A DNA stretch of 64,000 nt from a virus (Duplodnaviria; Heunggongvirae; Uroviricota; Caudoviricetes), in the IMG/VR virus record IMGVR_UViG_3300036760_000193, positions 27,395-91,394 of that record; one strand, given 5' to 3'. The notes beneath the pieces were generated by a model, which was not told the DNA's origin, searched no databases, and saw only the letters and a program-made list of their open reading frames with translations. Each line of letters starts with the position of its first letter. Positions within the stretch are counted from its first letter, which is position 1. Shown here one piece after another: positions 5,389 to 53,938 of the stretch. Both the position numbers and the translations under genes were made by a program.

Positions 5389-5663
5389 AACTTCTCCGCG
5401 ATATACTGGTCAGCCAATCGTTTAACAAGCAACATGAGCCTGGCGGTGGAATCGTCTATATTACCTTCAAACCGCAAAACATTATCCTTGAAACCAATCT
5501 GGGCGATCTTCTCTCCATCTTTCCCCATGATATGAATTTCATGGTGGTTTTCAGCGGGTATCAATAGAATCATTTCTGATTGTGTGCCTTCACTGAATTT
5601 TAATACATTTGAATCTGGTACGCTATCAAATGTCCAATCACTCATATTATGCACACTTAACAA
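5361..5663 (-). CDS. hypothetical protein (100 aa)
   Basis: Minus ORF. Confidence 0.4.
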   Translation of the reverse strand: MLSVHNMSDWTFDSVPDSNVLKFSEGTQSEMILLIPAENHHEIHIMGKDGEKIAQIGFKDNVLRFEGNIDDSTARLMLLVKRLADQYIAEKLCLKATENS

Positions 5664-6286: not shown

Positions 6287-6745
6287 TTAGTCAATCCTCC
6301 CTGGTGATTCGTATTTAGCTCTCAATCTCAAATATTCTTCTGATTCTCGCTTAACTTGTTCCTCGGCATCTTTCATCGCTTTCTCTTGCTTAAGCTGTTC
6401 TTGCTTTGTTTTGTAAGCTTCCATCCCTTCTATGAACAACGGATTGGAAAACAGGCGGGTTAGCCAACCGCCCACGTCAGAAACATCCCATTCCTTCTCG
6501 TTTCGTTCTGTTGGCACCGACACATCTTGAAACTCTACATATTCTTGTTCTAAAATGTCGTACTCAGATAGAGGAAATCCCCAAATACGATTAGGAACCA
6601 ATCGTTCGATAGCTCTATTCTCAAGGTCGTATAAAGTATCTGCTATAATTGTAATACGATCTAAGTCATCGTAGCAACTGCCACAATGTTGTTTCGGCAT
6701 TATCTGAAGCCGGTACTTAGTCTTGAGTTGGGCTGTTACTTCCAT
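6287..6745 (-). CDS. hypothetical protein (152 aa)
   Basis: Minus ORF. Confidence 0.45.
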   Translation of the reverse strand: MEVTAQLKTKYRLQIMPKQHCGSCYDDLDRITIIADTLYDLENRAIERLVPNRIWGFPLSEYDILEQEYVEFQDVSVPTERNEKEWDVSDVGGWLTRLFSNPLFIEGMEAYKTKQEQLKQEKAMKDAEEQVKRESEEYLRLRAKYESPGRID

Positions 6746-7232
6746 TTGTTTCCTCCGTAGGCGATGGAGCTACTGGCGTACACTCCATCACATCATTTAT
6801 AACAGGTCGCGGTCGTCTCAATATTGTGTACTTGATAAAGTTCTTTGTATCGTGTAAAAACCAATGGATTCGGCTTCGCAGTTTCCAATGCCATTTGCTG
6901 TTCCGCTCATCGACATCATACCAAGTCTTCCCCCCATCTTCTGAGAATTTGGCGGGATCGCGGCGGTTCTGCCATACTCCCTTACCATTAAAATATTGTG
7001 TCACTTCCATCCATTCTGTAGGATTAGAGGATATGGGTGTCAAGGTTCTGAACCTCGCTACCCTATTAAAGATTTCCAAGGTCATGCCAGCTGAGAATCC
7101 TGAGTGTCCCTGGGCTGCAAACTTTTCTACCAATTCCAATACTGCATTGCCAAGCATTCCGTCATAGTCGCTGTCTTTGTCAAACAGTCCAGCGCGAGTC
7201 AATTCTTCTTTTGCGTGTTGTACTAAGCTCAT
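6717..7232 (-). CDS. hypothetical protein (171 aa)
   Basis: Minus ORF. Confidence 0.45.
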   Translation of the reverse strand: MSLVQHAKEELTRAGLFDKDSDYDGMLGNAVLELVEKFAAQGHSGFSAGMTLEIFNRVARFRTLTPISSNPTEWMEVTQYFNGKGVWQNRRDPAKFSEDGGKTWYDVDERNSKWHWKLRSRIHWFLHDTKNFIKYTILRRPRPVINDVMECTPVAPSPTEETNGSNSPTQD

Positions 7233-7444: not shown

Positions 7445-8139
7445 AAAATGTTCTTTCGGAAGGGTTCAAAGACTTTGCGAAATGGTTTGGCTGCTCTCTT
7501 CATACTTTTTGAAGTCATGGTAAAGTGAAGGCCAGTTGCCAAGTACGCCTGAGCCTCATCATCATAAACATTGTTTGCGTATCCACGGCCTTTCAGCTTT
7601 TTCTTCATTGTACGCCAAATTTGTTCTGGAAGTTTATTTATAAGTTTCCCCATTGTCCTTTGGTATTCAGAGTTGGTAGAAAACAACGCATGAGCTAATT
7701 CATGACGCAAAGTCTGTTGGTCTTCTTTAGGGTTCATGACGCCAATCAAATAGAATTTATTATCTTGGTGCTGCTGAGATATAATCTTTAGCACTGTGCT
7801 GTACATCAAATCATCATAGGGCGTCCACATGTCATATTCAGAAGTCCTAAGTTCTTTCAAGACTGGTATAATTACATGACTTGGAAGGTTGAACCCAACA
7901 TAATCTGTGGGGTATGTGAAAGCTCCATCACCATACTTCTTTGAATACCATTCCATGAAATCAGAGATCGTAAAGAACTTCTCACGGAATTTGGGGGATT
8001 CGTAGTATTCCTGGTAACGTAAAAATGTCATGCTTAGGTCGTAAGCATTATTGAATTCTAGACAATAGATTTTATCGGCCAGCTTTCTTAACTTTGGCTT
8101 TTGCACAGGATATCTCCAACTCATGTAATAAATCTGCAA
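7441..8139 (-). CDS. putative Zn-metallopeptidase-like protein (HExxH)
   Basis: HELAHALF motif; start uncertain (several in-frame Met). Confidence 0.4.
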   Translation of the reverse strand: MQIYYMSWRYPVQKPKLRKLADKIYCLEFNNAYDLSMTFLRYQEYYESPKFREKFFTISDFMEWYSKKYGDGAFTYPTDYVGFNLPSHVIIPVLKELRTSEYDMWTPYDDLMYSTVLKIISQQHQDNKFYLIGVMNPKEDQQTLRHELAHALFSTNSEYQRTMGKLINKLPEQIWRTMKKKLKGRGYANNVYDDEAQAYLATGLHFTMTSKSMKRAAKPFRKVFEPFRKNIL

Positions 8140-13699: not shown

Positions 13700-13952
13700 T
13701 TTCTTTCTCCAATAGGTTTATAGTGAATGTTTTTCCTAACAGTTTTTTAATTTCATCCCCCTGATATTCAAGTGGAGCGAAAGTTCTCAGTACGCCTTTG
13801 ATTCTACTCTCTACAGTCTTTAGATCAGTTACGAAAAGCATATCACGCTTAATAGTCTTGAACCACCGCCGATCAAGATTCTCTACAACATAGTAAATAA
13901 ATGATCCGTCACCCTGTTGCACAACTTTTTCTACTCTTAATTGAATTCTCAT
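13686..13952 (-). CDS. hypothetical protein (88 aa)
   Basis: Minus ORF. Confidence 0.4.
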   Translation of the reverse strand: MRIQLRVEKVVQQGDGSFIYYVVENLDRRWFKTIKRDMLFVTDLKTVESRIKGVLRTFAPLEYQGDEIKKLLGKTFTINLLEKENGLR

Positions 13953-14584
13953 ATCAATTTCTCCAATTCCGCCCGAACTCTTTCAGGCGTAGTTTTTTCG
14001 TATGCTTCATTGAAAAGTGTTCGACAAGCGACAAGACTTTTAGGGTCGGGACGGTATCCCTTAGCAAGGAACCGATAGAAACGAAATACGCGAAGATAGT
14101 CTTCTTTGATACGGTCTTCGGGGCGTCCAATGAATCTAAGGATTTTCTTTTCAAGGTCTTCGGTTCCCTGTGATAAAGGATCAAGGATGGTTCCGTCCAA
14201 GCGCATGTAAAGAGCGTTGATGGTAAAATCCCTACGTTTGGCATCCTCTTCCAAAGTGCCAATAGAAACGCTATCAGGCCGTCGGCCATCTGAGTACACA
14301 CCATCTTTGCGATAGTTAGCAACTTCATACTGTTCGTTGTCCTTTGAAATGGAGAGCACCAAGAATGCTTTGCCTGTTGTGCTTACTGCCCATCCAGCCT
14401 CTTTGAAAATCTCTTCGAGTTTATCCATCGGTATGTCCGTAACAAAATCATAATCAGACGGCTCCTTATGTAAGATTGTGTCACGAACGCTTCCTCCAAC
14501 GAGATAATTGTTTTGACTGTATGTGTCCAGGATCATGAATATCTGGACAAGCTGCATTTGTATTTTAGGGTTTAACAGGTTCAT
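13949..14584 (-). CDS. tRNA nucleotidyltransferase / poly(A) polymerase family head domain (CCA-adding-enzyme-like, 211 aa)
   Basis: GGSVRD...DYDF...RRDFTINA motifs of the Pol-beta nucleotidyltransferase (PolyA_pol head) family. Confidence 0.65.
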   Translation of the reverse strand: MNLLNPKIQMQLVQIFMILDTYSQNNYLVGGSVRDTILHKEPSDYDFVTDIPMDKLEEIFKEAGWAVSTTGKAFLVLSISKDNEQYEVANYRKDGVYSDGRRPDSVSIGTLEEDAKRRDFTINALYMRLDGTILDPLSQGTEDLEKKILRFIGRPEDRIKEDYLRVFRFYRFLAKGYRPDPKSLVACRTLFNEAYEKTTPERVRAELEKLI

Positions 14585-15209
14585 GAATTGGTTTTGGGTA
14601 CGGCAATATTTTGTAATGAAGCTTCTTCAACAACTCTTTCTTCCGCTTCCTATTACAATTAAAGTAAACGTATCGGTGCTTCTGTGGTCTTTCCACCCAG
14701 ATCACTTCATCGCCCCACTTCTCATTGATCTCTTTGTTCGTCATGTGCTGAGCGAACGTAGTGTGATGCAAAGATGGGTTCGCTTTCAACTTAGGGTCTT
14801 TGAACTTTGTGGATAGTCCTGTGTAAAACCAATTGGTCGCCTGATATACAAAACCAACATGCCCCCTGCTTGCATCAGCAAAACTTACAATTATTTCTTT
14901 ATCAAGCTTCTTCAACGTATACCCAATCAAAAAACTTTCACAGTTACGTGGTAAGCTATCTTCAAGCCAAAGACGTGTCAACTCATATACATTACTGGCT
15001 TCTTCTTCTCCACAAACACCACGTCGTAGTGTGGTGGACGCGCTTACCCCATAAATGATAACCCCGACTAATTCTTCTGTGATTTTTCTGAATAGACCAA
15101 ATGCTTTGGAGCATGGTGCTTTACGGTGCAAGTAATGGTTTTTTACAACCATGTCTTGTGCGATAGGCTTTTCGACTGGTAGAATCTCGAAGTCTTCGGC
15201 AATACTCAT
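14565..15209 (-). CDS. Mom-like / GNAT-fold putative modification enzyme, paralog C
   Basis: Shares HYxH, PRNxESF, SFADxxxGHVGFVYQATNW and KHRYVY motifs with 17018..17581 and 17751..18338. Confidence 0.5.
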   Translation of the reverse strand: MSIAEDFEILPVEKPIAQDMVVKNHYLHRKAPCSKAFGLFRKITEELVGVIIYGVSASTTLRRGVCGEEEASNVYELTRLWLEDSLPRNCESFLIGYTLKKLDKEIIVSFADASRGHVGFVYQATNWFYTGLSTKFKDPKLKANPSLHHTTFAQHMTNKEINEKWGDEVIWVERPQKHRYVYFNCNRKRKKELLKKLHYKILPYPKPIHEPVKP

Positions 15210-15210
15210 C

Positions 15211-15798
15211 TTATTTTCTTATCTGTTTCGCCCGTTCTTCGTATGCGTCTGGTAACTTTGAATTTTCTAACTTTGTTCCTTCGGAAAAAAAGTGAGCGTT
15301 ACCACGACCCATAACACGCCCTTCTTTAGTGTGAATATCTAGAGCGTAATCTGGTATCGGTTTCTTTTCTTGTGAACCTTCAAAAAAAACTATATTTGCA
15401 TTATCTACGATGCGGGACTTGGGTTCACGAACAAGAAGAATAACGGCCTGTATAAAAAATAGTCTGTCACCTGGATTGTTATTCTTCTTCATCTTAGTCC
15501 ATAGTTCATGTAATGTTTGAATACGAACAACCGCATTAAAATCGGCGGGGCCAATATCTTCGGTAGCAATGATTTCAAAACGAGCCCAAGCTAGACTAGC
15601 ATGATTGCTTTTATACAACTCCACAGCCCAATATAAAGCATCTTCTTCGAGTCCTCTGCGAATTGATTTTTGAAGGGCAGATAAGACTTGATGTACGTCA
15701 TATCCTCCTACGGTTGGCATCTGCATAAAGGTATCTTTTGCAGTGGTAACTGCATTTGTCTTTACTTCCATGTTAATCTCCTTTAAGAATAATTTCAA
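15211..15798 (-). CDS. hypothetical protein (195 aa)
   Basis: Minus ORF; ATGA overlap with the upstream gene. Confidence 0.45.
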   Translation of the reverse strand: MKLFLKEINMEVKTNAVTTAKDTFMQMPTVGGYDVHQVLSALQKSIRRGLEEDALYWAVELYKSNHASLAWARFEIIATEDIGPADFNAVVRIQTLHELWTKMKKNNNPGDRLFFIQAVILLVREPKSRIVDNANIVFFEGSQEKKPIPDYALDIHTKEGRVMGRGNAHFFSEGTKLENSKLPDAYEERAKQIRK

Positions 15799-16751
15799 CC
15801 GTGACAGGTTGGTGAAAATGCTTTGAGAATACCGTCTTTCATTTTCACATTTGGTAATTTACATCCTGGGAATGCCTTTTTCAAATAATGAAATTCTTTC
15901 CACCAAGCAGGGTCTCGATAATGTCTGTCTTCCATTTTTTCGGTGGGAGGGTAACGAATGACAGCTCCTGTATACAACGATACGATACCGCCGTTTGCTG
16001 TTTCTGATAAAGAACGTCCACGATCTTCTAATTGATTAACAGGTCTCCAAATCCCCTTTGCATCTTTTGATATGATAAAAAGATTACGAATGTACCCATC
16101 ATAGCCAATTTTATGAAACATTTTGTCTTTATTTTCTCTTGGCATACCCATACCCTCAAAACGCGCCCCCACATTATTCTGGAGATAAGGACTGGATAAA
16201 GTAATTCCGAATAGTTTCATTCCTTGAAGTTGGTATGCAACCTCAGCACAAAAATTCTGTGGTGTCGAAAGACTTACACCGTTAACTCGGTCGGCTGGAA
16301 TCGCATGAAGAAAATCAGCATCTGAAATTAAAATAAACTCAGCATCTCCGATTAATTCCTTTTCTATATAAGTCCAATCTTCCCCAAAAGATTTTCCGTC
16401 AGGTCTACCAACAACTTCAAACCCCCGCATTATATCTACATATTCTTTTTTCTGTTCTAAACATTGTTTCTTTCTTTTATTTACACAGTCCTTCAAAGCT
16501 TTAGTACAGGCGTCTAACTGTCTTTGATATACAGAAATAATACGCCGACGGACTGGAATCAGCGGTTCACTTTTTCTATTCCACAGTCTATGGTGTGCGT
16601 CAAAACCTAACCATTCTAACTTAGTATTATGTCCTTCTCCATAGGGTCTAACAAGCGATTTTACCTGATGTGCCGCATCTTCTTCTGTTCGCGCCCCACA
16701 TCTAATGCCGATAGTAAGTGTCGGGCATTCTGGTAAATTTTGCGTTGCCAT
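15795..16751 (-). CDS. hypothetical protein, possible GT-A-like glycosyltransferase (DxD-type ISDAD motif)
   Basis: Start moved to ATG 16751 (GGGGG SD 9 nt upstream, directly after the upstream stop); ILISDADF motif. Confidence 0.4.
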   Translation of the reverse strand: MATQNLPECPTLTIGIRCGARTEEDAAHQVKSLVRPYGEGHNTKLEWLGFDAHHRLWNRKSEPLIPVRRRIISVYQRQLDACTKALKDCVNKRKKQCLEQKKEYVDIMRGFEVVGRPDGKSFGEDWTYIEKELIGDAEFILISDADFLHAIPADRVNGVSLSTPQNFCAEVAYQLQGMKLFGITLSSPYLQNNVGARFEGMGMPRENKDKMFHKIGYDGYIRNLFIISKDAKGIWRPVNQLEDRGRSLSETANGGIVSLYTGAVIRYPPTEKMEDRHYRDPAWWKEFHYLKKAFPGCKLPNVKMKDGILKAFSPTCHG

Positions 16752-16752
16752 A

Positions 16753-16935
16753 TTATTGACCCCCATATTGTTCTGAATTAAATACCTGAACAGCGAAAGC
16801 TTCTTGGATATCACATTCCTTAAAACCATGTTTCAATAACAGACGCCCAATTTGGTTGGTATTTTTTCCCACCCACAATTTGGTGTTTTCATCCAAAAAT
16901 TCTAACACCGATTCAAACCCACGTTTCTTTTTCAT
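16753..16935 (-). CDS. hypothetical protein (60 aa), probably leaderless
   Basis: ATG 5 nt downstream of the P4 -10 (TATAAT-ggagt-ATG). Confidence 0.4.
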   Translation of the reverse strand: MKKKRGFESVLEFLDENTKLWVGKNTNQIGRLLLKHGFKECDIQEAFAVQVFNSEQYGGQ

Positions 16936-16940
16936 ACTCC

Positions 16941-16969
16941 ATTATACCATGAAAACGATAATTTGTCAA
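16941..16969 (-). promoter_or_regulatory. sigma70-type promoter P4 (TTGACA-17-TATAAT)
   Basis: Plus attata 16941-16946 and tgtcaa 16964-16969; near-identical copy of P8. Confidence 0.6.
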
Positions 16970-17017
16970 GGGGAATCTGATTGTTGATTATTTGATATGA
17001 TTTTTAGAGGTGTTTTA

Positions 17018-17581
17018 CTATACCCATTGCTTTACTTCGTACTTCAAGGCAGGTTTCAAGCCGGGTTTTAACAGATACACGTATTTATGTTTTGGTTCTC
17101 TAGGTTCGGTTGTAATGGGTCCAACTCCCATTTCTGCCAGTTTTTTCATAGACGACGTACCGTAAAGATTATAGAATTGTTTGGGGTGCATTTCACGTCC
17201 ATTCAGGAACATACGGTCTCGATCTTGTTTCTGTTTTCCAAGGTAGAGAAAATTGCTGGCACGGTAAATGATGCCCTTATGACCATACTTAGGATCAGAG
17301 AAACTTACGATTGCTTTTACATCTGTATTCTTTTGGAGCCAACGCAAACACCACCCAACAAATCTAGATTCGCTATTCTTCGGTATTTCATCTAACAAAA
17401 CTAATCGTTGTAGTTCAAGATAATCCTTATAATTTTCATAGCCTTTAAGAACTTCAACGGCCTTTGGGTTTCCACCAATCATACCAAAAAGACAGGCACC
17501 AACCAAAATACCGTTCACTGTTATCTTAAACGCATGGGAAACAACTTTGTGGTGTGTGTGTGAATAATGATGTGTGTCCAC
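17018..17581 (-). CDS. Mom-like / GNAT-fold putative modification enzyme, paralog A
   Basis: Table ORF runs to 17677 but its first 17 codons are the tRNA; likely GTG start at 17581. Motifs HHYSH, PKNSESRF, SFSDPKYGHKGIIYRASNF, PKHKYVY. Confidence 0.45.
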   Translation of the reverse strand: MDTHHYSHTHHKVVSHAFKITVNGILVGACLFGMIGGNPKAVEVLKGYENYKDYLELQRLVLLDEIPKNSESRFVGWCLRWLQKNTDVKAIVSFSDPKYGHKGIIYRASNFLYLGKQKQDRDRMFLNGREMHPKQFYNLYGTSSMKKLAEMGVGPITTEPREPKHKYVYLLKPGLKPALKYEVKQWV

Positions 17582-17618
17582 AAAATTAGCAACTTCTTTT
17601 AATGGACACTTTTCAAAA

Positions 17619-17692
17619 TGGAGCGGAGGGGTCGGGATCGAACCGCCATCCTGTTCGGGAAGAACAGATTTTTCCACTTAAACTACCTCCGC
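17619..17692 (-). tRNA. tRNA, probably tRNA-Gly(UCC)
   Basis: 74 nt GCGGAGG...CCTCCGC-T-CCA. 7-bp acceptor stem, TTCGATC T-loop, 5-bp anticodon stem CTGTT/AACAG with loop CTTCCCG (anticodon UCC), CCA encoded. Confidence 0.7.
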
Positions 17693-17725
17693 AAATTGAA
17701 CAATCAAAGATTTCATACTATCTAT

Positions 17726-17754
17726 ATTATACGAAATATTTTCATTGATCTTAA
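17726..17754 (-). promoter_or_regulatory. candidate promoter upstream of the tRNA (-10 TATAAT, weak -35 TTAAGA, 17-nt spacer)
   Basis: Minus strand TTAAGA-N17-TATAAT about 35 nt upstream of the tRNA 5' end. Confidence 0.3.
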
Positions 17755-18338
17755 GAACTTCTAGTGAATTCATACAAATAAATTACCTTGCCTTTCTGTT
17801 CCTTGTAGAACGCTTCTCCAGTTTCCAACGCCGCTTTAACTCTGGCGGCGAACGGTTTCAATCGCCCTTTATACTTTGTTCTAATAGCTTTATCATGGTA
17901 CTTCTTACCATTCCACAAGATCACTCGTCCCTTGGCGGTTTCCCCAAGGCGTTTGAAATTGCTGGCTTGATAGATAATCCCCTGATGGTTATAATTAGTA
18001 TCCGCATAGGAAATGATACGTTTGATCTGAGTATTTTTCTTAATCCAAAGAAGGCATTTGGATATAAAGAATGATTCAGTATTCTTGGGGGTGTCATCAA
18101 TACAACACAACCTGCGAAGTTCTATAAGGTCTTCTTCTTTTTCAGCGTACTTCTTCCAGACATTAGCCATCGCCAATCCGCCAAATAGCGCAGCCCCTAT
18201 CAATTGTTCACCATTACGTAGGGCAAAACAATAAGAAAGCCGCAACCCATTCACCGATTTAGAATAATGCCATTGTTCTACGAAGGGTCGCAACTTATCT
18301 ATTGTTGATAATTCAACTCGGAAAGCCTTAACATCCAT
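17751..18338 (-). CDS. Mom-like / GNAT-fold putative modification enzyme, paralog B
   Basis: Motifs WHYSKS, ELRRL, TPKNTESFF, SYADTNYNHQGIIYQASNF. Confidence 0.5.
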   Translation of the reverse strand: MDVKAFRVELSTIDKLRPFVEQWHYSKSVNGLRLSYCFALRNGEQLIGAALFGGLAMANVWKKYAEKEEDLIELRRLCCIDDTPKNTESFFISKCLLWIKKNTQIKRIISYADTNYNHQGIIYQASNFKRLGETAKGRVILWNGKKYHDKAIRTKYKGRLKPFAARVKAALETGEAFYKEQKGKVIYLYEFTRSS

Positions 18339-18353
18339 TAAAGAATTATACGC

Positions 18354-18674
18354 TTATTTTGACTTGTTGTCTAGGTAAAACTTTTGAAACTGACTCCAAC
18401 CCCATTTTACATAAGGTTCGGGCACTGGCTCTCCAAGGTAAAACCGCATAAAGCTCTGCAACTTCTGTTGGAATATCTCGAAGGTCGGGCAGTCATTGAC
18501 CAACTTCCTCAACTTATACTCAACGTTCTCTGATGTTCTTTCTTTAGACTCAAGGTCTTGTTCTGCAAGAAAATCTTCTGCCTCTTTGCGGGTGCGAAAT
18601 TGTTGTATGGCAAGTCCGTCTTCTGCTGTTACCGCAAAATTATTTGCGTTTTCGTTGAACTCTATTTTTAACAC
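18354..18674 (-). CDS. hypothetical protein (106 aa)
   Basis: Minus ORF. Confidence 0.4.
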   Translation of the reverse strand: MLKIEFNENANNFAVTAEDGLAIQQFRTRKEAEDFLAEQDLESKERTSENVEYKLRKLVNDCPTFEIFQQKLQSFMRFYLGEPVPEPYVKWGWSQFQKFYLDNKSK

Positions 18675-18843
18675 GTTGTCTCCTTTTTGTAACTCTTAAC
18701 TCAATGCCAAGTAACCCAAAACTCAAGGCATAACAATTCTCGTCTGAATTATCCCATTCATGCCACGGATGCCAGAACCAGAAGTCTGACACCTCAAGCT
18801 TTAGATTGTAACGGCTAACGCCGATGTGGGTCTCAATGTACAT
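18640..18843 (-). CDS. hypothetical protein (67 aa), uncertain
   Basis: Overlaps both neighbours. Confidence 0.25.
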   Translation of the reverse strand: MYIETHIGVSRYNLKLEVSDFWFWHPWHEWDNSDENCYALSFGLLGIELRVTKRRQRVKNRVQRKRK

Positions 18844-19310
18844 TGTGTCTCCTTTTGTTTATTCTGTTGAACATTACACCACGGTTGATACTCCCAAAAG
18901 AAGTTCAACGGGAATTTACTTTGCTTCTTCTGATTGCACCTTGAACAAGCGATGCACAAATTATTCTTGTCATACCGATCTCCGCCCCGCGATAATGGAT
19001 GGATATGGTCAACCGTTGCGAGGATGGACTCATCGGGCGAGTAGATATGTAAATCTGTCTTGTTACAATAAACGCAGGTGAGTGCACCTTCTTGTTGTTT
19101 CTCTATCAGGTACGTGTACCGAAATTGCATCCAACGGTCGGAGTTGGTCATCATTTCCAATGAAGCCAACCAACGCAGGTACTTGATGAAAGCGGCATAG
19201 CTCTTCTCATGCGGTTGCTTCACATGAATGCAGTGAATGTACTGCCAATCAAAAGTTCGATGCTTAAATCTAGCCACGTTCCATTGCCTTAAGGATTCGT
19301 GGTAATTCAT
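18801..19310 (-). CDS. HNH homing endonuclease
   Basis: CVYCN...DHIHPLSRGG...NLCIACSRCNQKK HNH motif. Confidence 0.7.
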   Translation of the reverse strand: MNYHESLRQWNVARFKHRTFDWQYIHCIHVKQPHEKSYAAFIKYLRWLASLEMMTNSDRWMQFRYTYLIEKQQEGALTCVYCNKTDLHIYSPDESILATVDHIHPLSRGGDRYDKNNLCIACSRCNQKKQSKFPLNFFWEYQPWCNVQQNKQKETQCTLRPTSALAVTI

Positions 19311-27162: not shown

Positions 27163-27564
27163 TTATTTTGGCTCAGGTATGTCCAAACAAGTTAGGTCAA
27201 CTTGATAAAGCAAATTGTACCTGCGAATCATAATCATGCTGGCACTTCCATGACCCGGGTTATGTGAAGCACACACTGTTCCTATCGCGGCACCTGTACC
27301 ATCCAAGAACTCAACAGCCAACAACCGTGCGTTATATGGCGTCCCGTCTGGTGCAGTGCCTTTGATCTCTGGCTCTACTATCGCTTTGACTGGCAACCCA
27401 GGAAGGTCTATCCGAACTGATACGCTTGACACTTCGACACCTGGAGCAATTGCCGTGGCGTTCTTATCATTGTTCTTCGTTACATAAACTTGCCACATCA
27501 CTTCTGCACTGGCCGTACTGCACAAAAGCCCTATGTTTAGTAACAAATATAGGTATGTTTTCAT
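27163..27564 (-). CDS. putative secreted protein or lipoprotein (133 aa)
   Basis: Signal peptide MKTYLYLLLNIGLLCSTASA with a possible lipobox GLLC. Confidence 0.5.
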   Translation of the reverse strand: MKTYLYLLLNIGLLCSTASAEVMWQVYVTKNNDKNATAIAPGVEVSSVSVRIDLPGLPVKAIVEPEIKGTAPDGTPYNARLLAVEFLDGTGAAIGTVCASHNPGHGSASMIMIRRYNLLYQVDLTCLDIPEPK

Positions 27565-40773: not shown

Positions 40774-41476
40774 CGACTGATTCTTTGCGCTCTTGAGTGG
40801 CGGCTTTTATAATCTCTCTAAGCTTTTGTTCTAATGAAACAGTGAACTCTTGAAACTTTATATCACCGTGGAAGGATTGGTAAATAACCAAAATATTATC
40901 TAACAGTTCGTCTACTAATCCTTCAAGATAAAGCTGCATGTCCTTTTCATCTTCTTTGTTCAGTTCTTTTCCATATTCGATACTCTTTTCCAAAATGGTT
41001 CTGATGCTTGTTACATAAGAAGAGATCGCATTTTCTAGTTGGGCACTTGGTAGCCCCGTAGACTGAGCACGTTCTAAGAATTGAATACGACCTTCACAAA
41101 ACTCTTTCCAGTATTCTAGCTGTTCTTTGGTGGAACCGCGATCATTATTCAAAACTGAATCAACAATGTTTGCTCCGTGTCGAAACCCCTCTTGCAATGA
41201 AGATGCTGTTTGTCTTTCAATTTCTGCTTCGCGCATTAGATCATCATAATGACGATCAATATATAATTGATAAGTGCCACGGCTGGATGGTATAATGTCA
41301 TTGAAGGTGGGAAACTTCTTTTCAAATTCCGTTTTTGTTTTCACCGCTCCATATCCTACTTTAATGATACTATGCAAAATATCCTTCATGGCCTGTGGAA
41401 GGTCTTCTAATTTAGTATTGTGTATGGGGGCTGGCTCAGGGGCTGGCGGCGGGGTTATTGGCTGTTCTTCATTCAT
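40751..41476 (-). CDS. hypothetical protein with a Pro-rich N-terminus (241 aa)
   Basis: Minus ORF. Confidence 0.45.
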   Translation of the reverse strand: MNEEQPITPPPAPEPAPIHNTKLEDLPQAMKDILHSIIKVGYGAVKTKTEFEKKFPTFNDIIPSSRGTYQLYIDRHYDDLMREAEIERQTASSLQEGFRHGANIVDSVLNNDRGSTKEQLEYWKEFCEGRIQFLERAQSTGLPSAQLENAISSYVTSIRTILEKSIEYGKELNKEDEKDMQLYLEGLVDELLDNILVIYQSFHGDIKFQEFTVSLEQKLREIIKAATQERKESVDGTQNPQ

Positions 41477-42861
41477 TGTAAGTCCTTGTTGGCACGACCT
41501 CGAATGTCTTCCAGGGTCTGTGTTCGTATAATCTCTCCGTTCTCATACACCAATTCCAATAGATCGGTGTGGTGTGACGGGTCTACACTACCTTCACGTA
41601 CTGTCCAAATCTCTCCAGGGTTTGGCTCGACAAGGATGAGACGCCCCGCCTTGCTCTTCTTACCTGGGTCTGTAATGGGATTCTTTGATACAGGAATATG
41701 TTTCCCATCAATTGTAATTTCACTGCACTTCAAAGCGAACTTTTGAGTATCACGGTTCAATTGTTGCAGAAGTGCCCCACCCATTCCAAAAGCAATGTTG
41801 GTTGCGCTATAGCCATCATCCGTGGCGGTCTTAAGAATCTCATTGATACTGTCCTGATTGATTCCATCCCCCTGAATAACTCGAACATTGTTCAGAACTT
41901 TATAGCCTTTGGTATTTACTGTAACACCGAACTTCGTTTCAAGCAATCGCAAGGTTTCCAAAACGATCTCAGGCGGATTGCCAGAGTCAGGACGAATAAT
42001 AACCGTCGCTCCTGAATTTATAACCTCATTCTTAAGAATCTCTCCCCATAAATGCTCAACTGCATTCCATAAATTGTACGAATCAGATACCACAGCCACA
42101 AGGCTACCAGGTTTTGCGAACTGTGTCAACATATTTCTGAAAGCATCTACCTCATGTTCTTTACCCCAAGCAGTGATTGTAGAATGTTCTGCCGCTGGTA
42201 TCGAAAATCCCGCCATGCCAGCTTGATAGTATTTGTTAGCGCACCATACGCCAGCGCATGTATCAGAACCCATGAAGTTAACAAGGTGAGAAGCCCCGCC
42301 AATGGATGCTGACTCTTGGCTCGACACTCCACGGGAACCAAAGTCATGAAGTTTGAAATTGATTTCAGCATCAGGATTGTCTGCGGTCTTTTTCAAATAT
42401 CCATAAATCAATCGTTTGATATGCCAGCTTTGGGTAGCCACAGTGATAGGATACCACATACGCATCAACATGGTCTCGAACCAGGATACCAACCAAAAGC
42501 ATTTAGGGTCTTGGCATTCCACAGTCATCAAAACGTTATGGGTTGGAACTACCAAACCTTCTGGCACTGCTCGAATCCTAAGCGGTATCTTGCCGCCCAA
42601 TTGCTCAACAACATACATCCACCCTTCCAATGGGAATGGTTCCCCATGACCTGCAAAGAAGGCTTGCGCTTCCAATACCATTTCTTTCGTTATACTAACA
42701 GTCAGGTATTTCTGCAAAATATATTGTAACCCAAAGAACACAGTACGATCATACTTTCCCCCACGGCTCTCCACGTATGAATACATACCAGTGGTCTTAG
42801 GTGGGTACTGCAAATGATGGGACGCCTTATACGAGTCTGTGTCAATAATGATGTTGTCCAT
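41473..42861 (-). CDS. nadV: nicotinamide phosphoribosyltransferase (NAMPT/NadV, 462 aa)
   Basis: N-terminal IIDTDSYKASHH (the NAMPT TDSYK motif); length and conserved blocks match NAMPT. Confidence 0.8.
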   Translation of the reverse strand: MDNIIIDTDSYKASHHLQYPPKTTGMYSYVESRGGKYDRTVFFGLQYILQKYLTVSITKEMVLEAQAFFAGHGEPFPLEGWMYVVEQLGGKIPLRIRAVPEGLVVPTHNVLMTVECQDPKCFWLVSWFETMLMRMWYPITVATQSWHIKRLIYGYLKKTADNPDAEINFKLHDFGSRGVSSQESASIGGASHLVNFMGSDTCAGVWCANKYYQAGMAGFSIPAAEHSTITAWGKEHEVDAFRNMLTQFAKPGSLVAVVSDSYNLWNAVEHLWGEILKNEVINSGATVIIRPDSGNPPEIVLETLRLLETKFGVTVNTKGYKVLNNVRVIQGDGINQDSINEILKTATDDGYSATNIAFGMGGALLQQLNRDTQKFALKCSEITIDGKHIPVSKNPITDPGKKSKAGRLILVEPNPGEIWTVREGSVDPSHHTDLLELVYENGEIIRTQTLEDIRGRANKDLQ

Positions 42862-43575
42862 TTATTGCTCCTGGTTTACTTTTAAGAATCGGCTATCGGA
42901 ATTTTCTATGATAACCTTGGCGATCCGACGAATCTCAATTATTTCTTGATTGATACGTTGTTTGGTGATTCCAAATTTCTGTGCAATGAATAGGTTGGTA
43001 GCCTTTGGTGTTCCCGACTTACTGAATGGCATACCGAACAACTCAGGCGCAACCAATACATCTAGGATAAACCCTTGACGTTCTGTCAAACGGGCTTTAA
43101 TGATTGACAGAAGTTGTTCATGTTCAATATTATACGTATTATCTTTCATGGAAAGCATAGTGGAAAGATTCTTAACTTGGCCTCGCTCCGCCGCATTAGC
43201 TTCAATCACACTCTCGTTTATGATTTGCGCTTTAGGCATACGTTTTTTCTGAACGTTCTTCCATGTTCCATCTTTGTAAACATGCCCAGCGGATATTAAC
43301 GCATTCACAATAGATCGGTGAAGAAGCGTATTGAAAAGAGTGCGTCCCGCTTTCGGAAGATGTTTACGTTTCGCTGGATCAAACTTAAAGTTGGGATCAT
43401 AATGTCTTGACACACGAATCAGAACACGAACGGCAATGTTCTCTTTTTCGTCGTCAAACAATACCGATGACTTAAACGACTGTGCTATAGTCAAAGCGTC
43501 TTCATAGTATTTAGAAACTAATTCCCGCTGAGTTGGTGTTAACTCTTGTGGTGTTTCGACGATTTCTTCATTCAT
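42862..43575 (-). CDS. putative sigma-70-family sigma factor-like protein (237 aa)
   Basis: C-terminal QKFGITKQRINQEIIEIRRIAK resembles a sigma region-4.2 HTH. Confidence 0.35.
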   Translation of the reverse strand: MNEEIVETPQELTPTQRELVSKYYEDALTIAQSFKSSVLFDDEKENIAVRVLIRVSRHYDPNFKFDPAKRKHLPKAGRTLFNTLLHRSIVNALISAGHVYKDGTWKNVQKKRMPKAQIINESVIEANAAERGQVKNLSTMLSMKDNTYNIEHEQLLSIIKARLTERQGFILDVLVAPELFGMPFSKSGTPKATNLFIAQKFGITKQRINQEIIEIRRIAKVIIENSDSRFLKVNQEQ

Positions 43576-44537
43576 AAGTCCCCCTTATCTTGTATGCCTT
43601 CATCAATGAAGGTCTCACCTTCCAAGTCGTCGCGGCGACCTTTCGAGTCTTTTTTTCCAAGATGCTGCAACAACGCTGTCCACAAAATCTTGTGAGATTC
43701 ATAAACAAGCTTTAATGTAGCATTGTTTATTGGATAGAACGCCACGTCTTGCAACTCTTCCGTACTTTCTGGATTCCCCCAGGTATGCTTTGCTACAAAA
43801 AACGATGTGATAATACGCTCATCTTTGGTGTATCTCCAATCATTCATCTGAAAACTGCCAACGTAATGCAACGCATCAGCACCCAGGCCAGATACCGTGG
43901 TCTCTTCGTCAAGCTCTCGTACTGCTGCCATCTCCAAGCTTTCATCTGCTGGGTCTACGAACCCACCAGGGAACACCAATGCCCCACCGACAGCCTTGCG
44001 CCCCAACAGAACCTTGTTGCCCTTCACTACAGCAATATCTATCGTCATGTGAAGTCTTGGATATTGGTTTTGCGTCGAATAGATGATCCCCGCTCGAAAG
44101 TCCGAACTGTTACGAATTGTCTTACCAGCGTCTTTACGAATGCTCGTACCAGATACATCGGGGAAGTTCTCGATCTTGCATGTCTTAAGACTTCCATCGT
44201 ACTGCTTCAAAAATGAGTCCTTGCCGCCATATAAACAAACTGTACCCATTGGGAACACTGTACGAATCATAACGTCCAGATTCTTGCTCCACTCTTTATT
44301 GGTTGGTCTGTCCATCAATGGCACCACAATGACATTAGGGAAGTCTGTCTGAATCATCTTAGCACGGCTTGTAAAGTCTAATGGGTCAACCTTCGTACCC
44401 AAGGTGGGAGCGACTCCCAGGAATACCAAAACATTCTTGGCCTCACTGGAAACAAACTCAAGCAGTTTCTTGTGTCCAACGTGAAGCTCTGGCACCTGGA
44501 ACCGCCCGACCACTACCCCAATGTCGTATTTAGTCAT
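43572..44537 (-). CDS. natV: bifunctional NMN adenylyltransferase + Nudix hydrolase (NatV-like)
   Basis: GRFQVPELHVGH (cytidylyltransferase H/TxGH) plus a Nudix box GGFVDPADESLEMAAVRELDEET; start set to ATG 44537 (GGGAGAG SD). Confidence 0.75.
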   Translation of the reverse strand: MTKYDIGVVVGRFQVPELHVGHKKLLEFVSSEAKNVLVFLGVAPTLGTKVDPLDFTSRAKMIQTDFPNVIVVPLMDRPTNKEWSKNLDVMIRTVFPMGTVCLYGGKDSFLKQYDGSLKTCKIENFPDVSGTSIRKDAGKTIRNSSDFRAGIIYSTQNQYPRLHMTIDIAVVKGNKVLLGRKAVGGALVFPGGFVDPADESLEMAAVRELDEETTVSGLGADALHYVGSFQMNDWRYTKDERIITSFFVAKHTWGNPESTEELQDVAFYPINNATLKLVYESHKILWTALLQHLGKKDSKGRRDDLEGETFIDEGIQDKGDL

Positions 44538-45441
44538 TTGATTCTCTCCCGTTATGCGCCCGTTTGATATCAAGAATCCGCCGCAACTGATCGCGGGTTA
44601 ACCCCGACAACTCCAAGCTATAGGTATCATAGTTGATGTTGTATTCAAGCTTCCCCTCTTTGATATAAAAAGATGCACGATTGCCCGTTACATACACATC
44701 TTTCGCTTCTGGAAACTCCACGGCCATCTTTTCTTTAACAACTGTGTCCGTCTCTTTTTGCTGAACTCGCGCTTCATACTTCGACTGCAACTCTTGAACG
44801 AACTCTGTAACCTTGGTATTGATTTTGGTTGCTAGGTCTTTTGTGGTTGGCGTCCAATTCTTCTTGAAGCTGACAGTCCAATCGTCTGAATCAATACGGA
44901 TATACGTTTTGTATCCCGTATGATGATAATGACCGTTACCTTTTAGATTGGCGAACACTCGAATTTTCTTATTGTAAGACGGATGATCTTCGGGGAACAC
45001 TTGAATCTTAATTTCAAAAGCATTTTTTTCCCAGCCATTGTCCTTCACCAATTCATAAACAAATGAATTTTTGACAGCAAATAGACCATCCAACTGATAG
45101 AAAAGCCGTTGAATCACGGCATTGGCTTCTCTCCGCGCTCTCTCATAGGGTGATTGTTTTGGCTCTTCCACTTTTTTCTCCACGACAGGTGGTGGTATGG
45201 GCTTAGCTTCTTCTTCTTTTACAGGATGAATCCCATAGACTCTTGTCAAATTAAATTCTTGAATCAACGCATTGGCCTGGACTGTTCCATGTTCGGATGC
45301 CACGCCACTAAGAACCAAACCCACAATATTATGTGAAAAAGGTCCTTTCTGTCTGATCGCCTTACGAATCTGCTCCCGCGCTTCGTCTAAACTTTCAATC
45401 CCGATTTTCATAAATCCCCCGTTATTTAGGTTCGACTTCAA
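44530..45441 (-). CDS. hypothetical protein (303 aa)
   Basis: Minus ORF. Confidence 0.45.
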   Translation of the reverse strand: MKSNLNNGGFMKIGIESLDEAREQIRKAIRQKGPFSHNIVGLVLSGVASEHGTVQANALIQEFNLTRVYGIHPVKEEEAKPIPPPVVEKKVEEPKQSPYERARREANAVIQRLFYQLDGLFAVKNSFVYELVKDNGWEKNAFEIKIQVFPEDHPSYNKKIRVFANLKGNGHYHHTGYKTYIRIDSDDWTVSFKKNWTPTTKDLATKINTKVTEFVQELQSKYEARVQQKETDTVVKEKMAVEFPEAKDVYVTGNRASFYIKEGKLEYNINYDTYSLELSGLTRDQLRRILDIKRAHNGRESND

Positions 45442-53402: not shown

Positions 53403-53938
53403 TTTCCAGATGATCCGAAACCACCTTGGCCTCGGTCACTGTCTGACAATTTATCGCTCTCCACCAATGTCACTTGCGGTGTTGGTAGGATGAGTGCCTG
53501 ACAAAATTTGCTCCCCGCTTCTATAATGAAGTCTTCATACCCATTGTTATAGGCTATGACCAATACTTCATTCCTATATCCTGAATCTATAATCCCAAGA
53601 TGATTTTTAACCTGAACTTTAGCATACGATGATCGCGTATGTACTTGCATGTGCCAACCCGTAGGAATTTCAAATGCCAATCCAGTGCGAACCATGCGCC
53701 ATTGCCCTGCTGGAATGTAAGTTCGTTCTAAGGCGTACAGGTCTATCCCAGCGTCGTCACTGTATGCTTTAGTAGGAATCATTGCTTTGGGGTCTAACTT
53801 TTTGAAGTGCAAAGTTAAGTTGTTCCGTTGATACACTTTACCCATGAATCCATCTATATCTCCCATGATGAGAGACAGAAACCATAGTTTTAATTTCCAC
53901 ATATTCTTACCTAGCGACCAGTTCTTTCTTAAATTCAT
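53399..53938 (-). CDS. dut: dUTP pyrophosphatase (dUTPase)
   Basis: dUTPase motifs AGIDL, GIIDSGYRNE and C-terminal RGQGGFGSSG. Confidence 0.75.
   Translation of the reverse strand: MNLRKNWSLGKNMWKLKLWFLSLIMGDIDGFMGKVYQRNNLTLHFKKLDPKAMIPTKAYSDDAGIDLYALERTYIPAGQWRMVRTGLAFEIPTGWHMQVHTRSSYAKVQVKNHLGIIDSGYRNEVLVIAYNNGYEDFIIEAGSKFCQALILPTPQVTLVESDKLSDSDRGQGGFGSSGK

Follow-up and report, generated by a model that had tools for sequence, protein, structure and literature searches.

Three Mom-family genes and a Mom-linked tRNAGly-like element in a large phage

The stretch of DNA analyzed here, which we call the window, comprises 64,000 nucleotides (positions 27,395 to 91,394) of the Caudoviricetes record IMGVR_UViG_3300036760_000193 in IMG/VR, a phage contig of 193,203 bp. 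Between 13.9 and 18.4 kb of the window, where every gene in and around the region lies on the minus strand, there are three genes of the Mom DNA modification family, here named Mom1, Mom2, and Mom3, together with an atypical tRNAGly-like element that lies 58 nucleotides (nt) from Mom3. The element belongs to an RNA family that is very strongly linked, physically, to Mom genes in viral, genomic, and metagenomic collections, and the Mom reading frame overlaps it. The genes of the region, with protein lengths in amino acids (aa), are as follows.

17751-18338, minus strand: Mom3, a Mom-family GNAT protein of 195 aa (Pfam PF25680, phrog_1384)
17619-17692, minus strand: tRNA-like element, an atypical tRNAGly(UCC)-like RNA gene and member of the Mom-linked family (ARAGORN, family model R1)
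17018-17677, minus strand: Mom2, a Mom-family GNAT protein of 219 aa from a GTG in the element's D loop (PF25680)
16753-16935, minus strand: a conserved open reading frame (ORF) of 60 aa with a counterpart in locus L131
15795-16751, minus strand: a GT-A-fold glycosyltransferase-like protein of 318 aa (predicted structure)
15211-15798, minus strand: an MgsA/RarA C-terminal-domain-only protein of 186 to 195 aa, with no AAA+ domain (PF12002)
14565-15209, minus strand: Mom1, a Mom-family GNAT protein of 214 aa (PF25680)
13949-14584, minus strand: a head-and-neck-only class II tRNA nucleotidyltransferase of the CCA-adding type, 211 aa (PF01743)

The original prediction had taken three of these ORFs for paralogs resembling the Mom protein of phage Mu, and had framed the region as a candidate nucleic-acid modification module. 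Both the resemblance and the frame proved right. When each paralog was searched against the Mom family profile (PF25680, curated cut-off 27.1 bits), all three came out as Mom and none fell into an unrelated family: Mom1 scored 154.4 bits (E 4e-45), Mom2 132.1 bits (E 2.7e-38, scored on 17018-17581), and Mom3 108.1 bits (E 6.2e-31). Each also matches phrog_1384, "Mom-like DNA modification protein" (E 5e-60 for Mom3), and all three match the solved structure of Mu Mom, PDB 8BV8, by sequence (phmmer E 1.2e-14 for Mom1). When Mu Mom is aligned with the three window copies and six tRNA-linked homologues, residues H58, Y59, R111, S124, D149, and Y159 do not vary. Among the motifs first quoted for the paralogs, HY, ELxRL, P[KR]NxES, and S[FY][AS]D..H.G.[IV]Y[QR]A[ST]N are all present in the alignment, but KH[KR]YVY is degenerate in the third copy (KGKVIY). 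Where Mu Mom has a helix-turn-helix (HTH)-like insertion, each window copy has a segment of 40 to 50 residues, as judged by alignment only, and the sequences of these segments differ, most of all in Mom3.

The three copies are indeed diverged, with the two other paralogs showing 31% and 26% identity to Mom1, but they are not tandem duplicates, since relatives elsewhere (56 to 84% identity) are far closer than those in the window (26 to 31%). The closest relatives of Mom1 are IMG/VR proteins of about 60% identity. Mom2 is 84% identical to a protein from L131, a related phage, and 64% identical to one from L001, a small IMG/VR contig, and Mom3 is closest to proteins from Geobacillus, Bacillus, Enterococcus, and Klebsiella phages (55 to 64% identity). 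Because each copy has much closer relatives elsewhere than in the window, the set is better described, at the level of sequence, as three subfamilies brought together than as recent duplicates. The Mom assignment itself is known biology; it is the cluster of three subfamilies that is unusual. Among 80 loci chosen for similarity to Mom1, two Mom genes at most 3 kb apart were found in only 2 distinct groups and three Mom genes in none.

Mu Mom moves glycine from Gly-tRNAGly onto the N6 of adenine in double-stranded DNA, and the glycyl adduct then rearranges to N6-carbamoylmethyl-deoxyadenosine (Silva et al., Nat Commun 2026, PMC13219725). All three Escherichia coli tRNAGly isoacceptors serve the enzyme and mischarged Gly-tRNAAla is inactive; the terminal riboadenosine of the tRNA is required, and the acceptor end is the presumed site of recognition (PMC13219725). 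Activity depends on H58, Y59, R111, S124, D149, R151, and Y159, and the HTH-like insertion (approximately residues 175 to 209), which was modeled in the DNA major groove, is essential (PMC13219725). This chemistry narrows the targets proposed earlier, which were DNA bases, tRNA, or proteins, to DNA as the target and tRNA as the co-substrate. With Gly-tRNAGly now established as the donor, the tRNA becomes the most interesting part of the locus rather than a bystander. Phage-encoded tRNAs and paralogous Mom sets go unmentioned in the text of PMC13219725, and no description of a Mom-linked tRNA or tRNA-like RNA was found in the searchable literature.

The tRNA noted originally is present, at 17619-17692, where ARAGORN calls a tRNA-Gly(UCC), the only tRNA in the 64-kb window, but it is not an ordinary one. 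The Rfam tRNA model RF00005 gives it 20.8 bits in a 131-nt scan, below the gathering score of 29, and returned no match at E ≤ 1 in a 7-kb scan; the family model R1 gives it 68.5 bits. The acceptor stem is GCGGAGG/CCUCCGC, followed by a discriminator U and an encoded CCA, the D stem is A-U-rich and weak, and the variable loop has 3 nt. The anticodon loop, CUUCCCG, has C37 and a possible C32-G38 pair, and the T arm, GGCGG-UUCGAUC-CCGaCC, has an odd stem with a bulged A. The element nonetheless has G1:C72, C2:G71, G3:C70, U73, C35, C36, and CCA. In L001, among the closest Mom2 relatives, a similar element lies directly upstream of Mom; relative to the window, its acceptor and D stems carry compensatory changes and its anticodon arm is quite different, and ARAGORN misses it. 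The orthologous element of L131 (2880-2953) ends in GCU-ACU with no encoded CCA, and a 3-nt insertion after it keeps the Mom2 frame.

We searched three collections for the family with a 29-nt T-arm/acceptor signature that includes no Mom sequence. The IMG/VR pattern was GGCGGTTCGANNCCGACCNCTNCGCTCCA; acceptor positions were relaxed for GTDB genomes, and the T loop was relaxed as well for metagenomes. IMG/VR yielded 24 stretches with 16 distinct elements, and 22 of them have the element in contact with a Mom-like ORF on the same strand, one of the two exceptions being at a contig end. The 24 GTDB stretches come from metagenome-assembled genomes (MAGs) of many phyla, with a same-strand Mom-like ORF touching the element in 17 and a Mom gene 3 kb away in one more. 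The metagenomes held at least 120 stretches, 118 of them distinct; among those listed, the element is touched in 103 and Mom lies elsewhere in the locus in 9, while of the 8 listed without Mom, 5 have too little flank and 3 have none. Over all three collections, a same-strand Mom-like ORF touches the element in 142 of the 168 stretches listed. Loci reached by other routes gave the same picture: in L131, reached via the 318-aa protein, the element is fused to the Mom2 orthologue, and in L132, reached via the MgsA_C protein, it lies 5 nt upstream of a Mom gene. In L023/L025, the reading frame of a Mom1 relative passes through a tRNA-like element. No element was found in the Mu mom region. Among the IMG/VR matches, no window gene besides Mom recurs near the element, except for an MgsA_C-like tail fused to the L001 Mom. 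There, the Mom2-like protein (L001 2062-2775) ends in approximately 37 residues similar to the C terminus of the window MgsA_C-only protein, which suggests that a deletion fused two genes.

The family extends to a cultured phage. In Psychrobacter phage vB_PmaS_Y8A (OQ059336.1), a Mom gene annotated as hypothetical (Pfam E 1.8e-55) is followed by two tandem elements that lack a D arm, at 7786-7853 and 7858-7926 (L136 2462-2529 and 2534-2602), with the loop UUCCC, the T arm GGCGG-UGCGACU-CCGaCC, and UCCA. The genome paper of this phage states "No tRNA genes" (PMC10434257). A blastn search of isolate phages with the window element returned only unrelated tRNAs, and a repeat with three family members found Y8A. 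ORF69 of this phage is a second Mom. Two copies of the element occur in metagenomic loci L151, L153, L154, L189, L225, and L233, and three in L192; the copies are in tandem in L151, L153, and L225, as in Y8A, and further apart in the others.

Relatives of the element were also seen away from Mom. In Acidobacteriota, a bulged-T-stem element with the loop GACCA lies inside a glycosyltransferase cluster (L111, approximately 5514-5588, and L114, 3442-3516, both minus strand), with a GT2 gene and a FemAB-family gene (PF02388, E 8e-10) immediately downstream of it, and in L111 the GT2 frame reads through the element. A version whose loop is the canonical UUUCCAG occurs on three chromosomal contigs of Terriglobia (L107 6925-7002, L112 3566-3643, and L130 1464-1541), those of L107 and L112 scoring 34 to 36 bits with the Rfam tRNA model, and no Mom or Fem gene lies within 8 kb of it. 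These may be ordinary host tRNAs from which the family derives. A different arrangement was observed in related large phages, where a canonical tRNA-Gly(UCC) lies on the opposite strand, 0.5 to 2.8 kb from a Mom1-like gene (L028, L030, L031, L034, L035, L039, L041 to L043, and L065), with tRNA-Arg(UCU) in its place in the syntenic contigs L032, L037, and L040. This canonical group was excluded from the support for the linkage.

The family is a covarying cloverleaf RNA with glycine identity and with non-canonical T and anticodon arms. Among 10 sequences of the same geometry, 96.4% of cells pair and 12 of 22 pairs show compensatory changes, which 0 of 500 shuffles match. The metagenomic alignment of 104 distinct sequences has 97.5% of cells paired and compensatory changes at 20 of 22 pairs, again with 0 of 500 shuffles as high, and slid controls for this alignment pair at approximately 40 to 47%. 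The pair 31:38, which closes the anticodon loop, covaries between U-A and C-G. In alignment A5, which comprises 41 distinct viral, genomic, and window elements, a 6-bp anticodon stem carries the loop (N)NNCCA, of 5 nt in 22 elements and 6 nt in 17, with UCC in 31; across the family, the position equivalent to 33 is U, A, C, or G. G1:C72, C2:G71, G3:C70, and U73 are found in all 41, every loop has CC, and CCA is present in 40; the 3' half is the most conserved part. The determinants of bacterial glycyl-tRNA synthetase (GlyRS) are G1:C72, C2:G71, C35, C36, and U73 (PMC10464925), and the full bacterial tRNAGly identity set is present in the elements. Standard tools see little of this: ARAGORN, run on 142 distinct elements, left 85 undetected, called 31 "tRNA-???" (with 2- or 4-nt anticodons), and called 24 tRNA-Gly, and the Rfam tRNA model gives at least 29 bits in only 5 of 20 genomic relatives. 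The bulge of the element is at the part of the T stem that EF-Tu contacts. Judged by its sequence, the window element is probably not a decoding tRNA.

The overlap with the reading frame changes the start of Mom2. The start proposed earlier, 17581, was rejected, as a GTG there would drop approximately 14 conserved N-terminal residues; homology to the L001 and L131 proteins extends upstream of it, as does the synonymous-substitution pattern. Comparison of the window with L131 from the tRNA end to GTG 17581 shows 4 synonymous codon changes, 1 non-synonymous change, and one 3-nt indel, a synonymous excess indicating that the stretch is translated. Because no canonical start lies between the tRNA 3' end and 17581, the start of Mom2 is likely GTG 17677, in the D loop of the element. 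The public gene call also uses this start (219 aa), and GGAGG in the 5' strand of the acceptor stem lies 8 nt upstream of it.

The same frame is kept open across the family. The element frame encoding [DE]GGS[IT]PT is open in 34 of the 41 sequences, versus 12 and 22 for the other two frames, and the 7 sequences with stops in the Mom frame are those that Mom does not overlap plus the window and L131, in which a UAA immediately precedes the start codon. Among the metagenomic loci listed (at least 120), the element is at the 5' end of Mom in 43 of 120 and at the 3' end in 59 of 120. With elements at the 3' end, the Mom frame runs past its usual ...PYPK end and stops 11 to 38 nt after the CCA. A canonical start between the element and the HY motif is absent from 18 of 52 read-through ORFs, and in 20 of the 52 the D-arm region offers an in-frame start; an in-frame ATG or GTG at element nt 15-16 is found in 7 of 17 distinct viral and window elements. 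RNA excision and translation of full-length Mom2 would thus exclude each other on one transcript.

The neighboring genes belong to a block, consisting of the element with Mom2, the small ORF, the GT-A gene, the MgsA_C gene, and the CCA enzyme gene, that is shared with L131 at 47 to 84% identity, with a different order of flanking genes. A GT-A-like nature had been guessed for the 318-aa protein from its DxD motif, and the guess was borne out at the level of the fold: an AlphaFold2 model built with 15 sequences (predicted local distance difference test [pLDDT] 79.7, predicted template modeling score 0.83) predicts a GT-A fold. A model from 2 sequences only (pLDDT 41.8) was unusable. Full phmmer searching found 18 relatives, where a word search had found 1. 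In the ISDAD motif, the first aspartate, D144, is nearly invariant among 15 to 19 relatives, but the second is not (D146 is replaced by G or N). A profile of the family found nothing meaningful among PDB sequences. The protein differs from GT-A (GT2-like) glycosyltransferases such as GlfT2 (PDB 4FIX) in belonging to no sequence family of theirs, in its unconserved second aspartate, and in being always paired with an MgsA_C-only protein in DNA modification neighborhoods.

That partner, at 15211-15798, had been listed as a 195-aa unknown and is now identified by its match to PF12002, MgsA_C (E 7e-08). It has no AAA+ ATPase module, NCBIfam RarA models score far below their cut-offs, and its MgsA_C-only family has 202 homologues of 130 to 296 aa, most of them approximately 170 to 220 aa. 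In the window and in L132, L134, and L135, the GT-A and MgsA_C genes share 4 nt at the GT-A stop, and a GT-A-family member upstream of an MgsA_C gene recurs in L131, L132, and L134/L135. In L133, a 363-aa protein precedes the MgsA_C gene, with TAGT and N6_Mtase genes nearby; it was rejected as a member of the GT-A family at 13% identity. The neighborhoods of the GT-A and MgsA_C genes, both phage and bacterial, contain C5 methylases, TAGT with an N6 methylase, or Mom with the element. We treat the two as a recurrent pair that is either accessory or an independent candidate DNA modification pair.

The CCA-adding head domain predicted downstream was recovered by PF01743 (PolyA_pol, E 5.4e-32). 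The 211-aa protein matches NF009814 (E 6e-44) over model positions 16 to 204 of 396, as well as phrog_2244/24229, and its translation contains GGSVRD, DYD, RRDFTINA, and EDYLR. Bacterial class II CCA-adding enzymes, of approximately 400 aa, share the head and neck motifs GGxVRD, DxD, RRD, and EDxxR. The window protein, in contrast, lacks the body and tail domains that hold the tRNA elbow and belongs to a short phage family (phrog_24229); the next ORFs show no related domain. An orthologue of 66% identity ends the same block in L131, where the element has no encoded CCA and a CCA-adding activity would be needed. The 60-aa ORF has a 64-aa counterpart in the corresponding place in L131, with 69% identity, and a search for its family gave only sub-threshold TraC-like matches.

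Promoter-like sites, found by a consensus scan only, lie in all three gaps of the region; the region total is 19 such consensus matches, against 12.4 ± 3.6 expected.

18345-18373, minus strand: promoter-like site before Mom3, TAGACA-17-TATAAT, 11/12
17726-17754, minus strand: promoter-like site before the tRNA-like element and Mom2, TTAAGA-17-TATAAT, 10/12
16941-16969, minus strand: promoter-like site before the 60-aa ORF and the GT-A gene, TTGACA-17-TATAAT with TG, 12/12, a perfect extended consensus

The wider window is a replication and nucleotide-metabolism region of a large phage, with ligase, class II ribonucleotide reductase, PolA, NAMPT, a Nudix protein, and a MoxR/VWA pair. NAMPT (41473-42861) and the Nudix protein (43572-44573), which has a weak cytidylyltransferase-like match, are NAD-salvage genes, and the family A DNA polymerase (53907-56624) has a domain of the uracil-DNA glycosylase superfamily at its N terminus; all three are on the minus strand. 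The same phage has an anti-defense gene, a 171-aa ORF at 6717-7232 (minus strand) that matches Pfam Tad3, a type I Thoeris inhibitor (E 3.9e-35). Directly upstream of Mom3 is a free-standing HNH endonuclease gene (18801-19310, minus strand). PHROG 559 ("HNH endonuclease," a profile of 607 positions) also aligns to Mom3 residues 35 to 163, indicating that Mom-HNH fusions exist elsewhere. Megablast of the 4.8-kb region against phage records gave no match, nor did tblastn of a 344-aa ORF against phages, and a back-translated scan of IMG/VR with that ORF found nothing.

Taken together, we read the region as a phage module for momylation, a DNA hypermodification, with a dedicated and probably non-decoding glycyl-carrier RNA, and we give this reading a probability of roughly 55%. 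The three Mom enzymes would take glycine from a charged tRNAGly-type RNA and place it on the N6 of adenines in double-stranded phage DNA, where the adduct would rearrange to N6-carbamoylmethyl-adenine and block host restriction. Their divergent, putatively HTH-like insertions would probably give each copy a different DNA sequence context, so that together they would cover more adenines than one Mom. Once excised from the mom transcript, the element would be charged by GlyRS of the host, for which it retains the determinants, and would serve Mom as a private glycyl donor, with the element's bulged T stem and abnormal anticodon loop keeping it from EF-Tu and the ribosome. Because the acceptor stem holds the Shine-Dalgarno sequence and the D loop the GTG, a single transcript would yield either the RNA or full-length Mom2, which would couple and limit both. 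The head-only CCA-adding enzyme would add or restore the 3' CCA on which Mom depends, and the GT-A and MgsA_C genes would be a separate recurrent pair seen in DNA modification neighborhoods. We infer the release of the element, its charging by GlyRS, its use as donor, its escape from translation, its CCA servicing, and the site specificity of the Mom copies. More broadly, and at a little under even odds, Mom-associated tRNAGly mimics may be an undescribed class of small RNA, situated at the 5' or 3' end of mom frames, charged by GlyRS and kept off EF-Tu and the ribosome through the T-stem bulge and a shortened anticodon loop, which would act as private carriers for Mom and, in Acidobacteriota, for Fem-like glycan enzymes; the genes of enzyme and co-substrate would then be fused, with the frame overlap serving as dosage control.

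Several observations weigh against the carrier reading. A private donor is not required, since any of the three ordinary E. coli tRNAGly isoacceptors serves Mu Mom and Mu carries no tRNA gene. The atypical element occurs in none of the 80 loci chosen by similarity to Mom1 and so accompanies only a subset of Mom genes. The search pattern fixed the T stem, and part of that stem's invariance reflects the way in which the sequences were gathered. The window copy is among the more tRNA-like members, with a 7-nt loop possible and U33 and a UCC anticodon present, and some decoding by it is possible; its minimum-free-energy fold alone is not exceptional (z = -1.31). The linkage to the CCA enzyme comes from two related phages only. 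Moreover, the Mom frame reads through the element, which could therefore affect translation in cis instead of working as a free RNA. In this main rival account, which we consider unlikely on the whole, the cloverleaf would bury the Shine-Dalgarno sequence and start of Mom2 and so keep a toxic enzyme low, or Mom would bind the mimic and repress itself. There are precedents, as ThrRS represses its own translation on the thrS operator, and mRNA structure is known to control Mu mom (from its annotation), which is controlled by Com. The 5' arrangement fits: the acceptor strand has the GGAGG 8 nt ahead of GTG 17677, a start falls in the D-arm region in the 20 of 52 read-through ORFs and at nt 15-16 in the 7 of 17 viral and window elements mentioned above, and the Mom frame is kept open through the element. 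Initiation cannot be occluded, however, by the 59 of 120 metagenomic elements listed that lie at the 3' end of Mom or just past its stop, by the tandem copies after the stop in Y8A, or by elements separated from the Mom start, as in L001 and L132. Simple occlusion also has no need of strictly kept GlyRS determinants, U73, and a 3' CCA, and the Fem-linked cousins point to a donor role. The cis and donor roles are not exclusive and could coexist.

A reading of the element as a normal if somewhat degenerate tRNA-Gly of the phage, aiding GGA/GGG decoding and with its adjacency to Mom meaningless, seems quite improbable. ARAGORN does call a tRNA-Gly(UCC), whose loop can be drawn with 7 nt, including U33 and UCC; tRNAs along with a CCA-adding enzyme are common in large phages; and the canonical tRNA-Gly(UCC) genes near Mom1-like genes in 10 related large-phage contigs, with tRNA-Arg in 3 syntenic ones, would fit such a view. 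Set against this are the low Rfam score, a pyrimidine at position 37, the bulged T stem, and the overlapping coding frame in the window, the contact with a Mom-like ORF in 142 of the 168 stretches listed, and the 5- or 6-nt or otherwise non-canonical loops, variable position 33, or missing D arm of most members. Still less credible, and indeed very improbable, is a relic of site-specific integration, that is, an attP/attB copy of a host tRNAGly gene, with Mom at the prophage end as in Mu. Temperate phages often integrate into tRNA genes and carry the 3' parts of tRNAs, and it is the 3' half of the element that is most conserved; many matches are in bacterial MAG contigs, and Terriglobia chromosomes hold a similar element without Mom. 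In viral contigs, however, full-length elements have acceptor stems that covary between the 5' and 3' halves, the non-canonical or missing arms would break a host tRNA, and tandem copies, an open frame, and the position of the window element among replication and nucleotide-metabolism genes of a contig of approximately 193 kb all speak against it. On a separate axis, one or more of the three Mom copies may use another donor, base, or RNA target or be inactive, instead of making N6-carbamoylmethyl-adenine in different contexts. The copies share only 26 to 31% identity, the insertion region of Mom3 is very different, and R151, essential in Mu Mom and a further point against our reading, is not kept: Mom1 has S there, followed by R at the next residue, Mom2 has K, and Mom3 has N, and other homologues also vary at this position. 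Since all other Mu Mom activity residues are invariant and the only linked RNA has glycine identity, we regard such a divergence in function as unlikely.

Returning to the dedicated-carrier reading, three known systems can be compared with the locus. With phage Mu Mom (PDB 8BV8, PMC13219725), the window proteins share the Pfam family, the residues H58/Y59, R111, S124, D149, and Y159, and a segment at the site of the HTH-like insertion, and the expected donor, Gly-tRNAGly, and target, adenine N6 in double-stranded DNA, are the same. Mu, however, has one mom gene under Com and no tRNA gene, whereas the window has copies from three subfamilies, an embedded tRNAGly-like RNA, and a CCA-adding enzyme, without conservation of R151. 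In Staphylococcus aureus, non-proteogenic tRNAGly serve the Fem transferases (FmhB/FemA/FemB), which are GNAT-fold proteins using amino acids from charged tRNA. These tRNAs are charged by the normal GlyRS, bind EF-Tu poorly, and have deviations in the D and T arms that lower their use by EF-Tu and the ribosome; the lineage is reported only in staphylococci (PMC7826273). The likeness lies in a glycine-accepting tRNA set aside for a GNAT-fold, tRNA-dependent transferase. The staphylococcal tRNAs are regular cloverleafs in tRNA gene clusters and their target is peptidoglycan, whereas window-type elements have a bulged T stem, often a 5- or 6-nt loop or no D arm, and DNA as the expected target, are fused physically to the gene of the enzyme, and occur in phages and many phyla.

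The tRNA mimics embedded in mRNA, such as transfer-messenger RNA (tmRNA), the thrS operator, and the viral 3' tRNA-like structures, likewise combine a tRNA module and a reading frame in one RNA, with the mimicry exploited by a protein whose usual ligand is the tRNA in question. The tRNA-like domain of tmRNA is built from both RNA ends and is alanine specific, and the thrS operator mimics the anticodon arm only. The window element, unlike these, is a cloverleaf with complete acceptor and T arms and glycine identity, lying in or against the coding sequence of an enzyme that consumes Gly-tRNA. By analogy with the staphylococcal Fem system, the Mom-linked RNA would be a new variant rather than a new category.

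The presence of the element in the cultured phage Y8A makes the carrier hypothesis directly testable, the co-occurrence of three Mom subfamilies in a single genome provides a natural experiment for studying DNA-site choice by Mom, and the GT-A and MgsA_C proteins provide a further uncharacterized candidate DNA modification pair. If the reading is true, the T arm GGCGG-N7-CCGACC followed by UCCA would be a sequence marker for finding such systems, whose elements standard tRNA finders mostly miss. The element would then represent the second known tRNA lineage reserved for non-ribosomal aminoacyl transfer, after the staphylococcal one, and the first tied to DNA modification and fused to the gene of its enzyme, and it would explain how glycyl-tRNA could be drawn late in infection without competing with translation.

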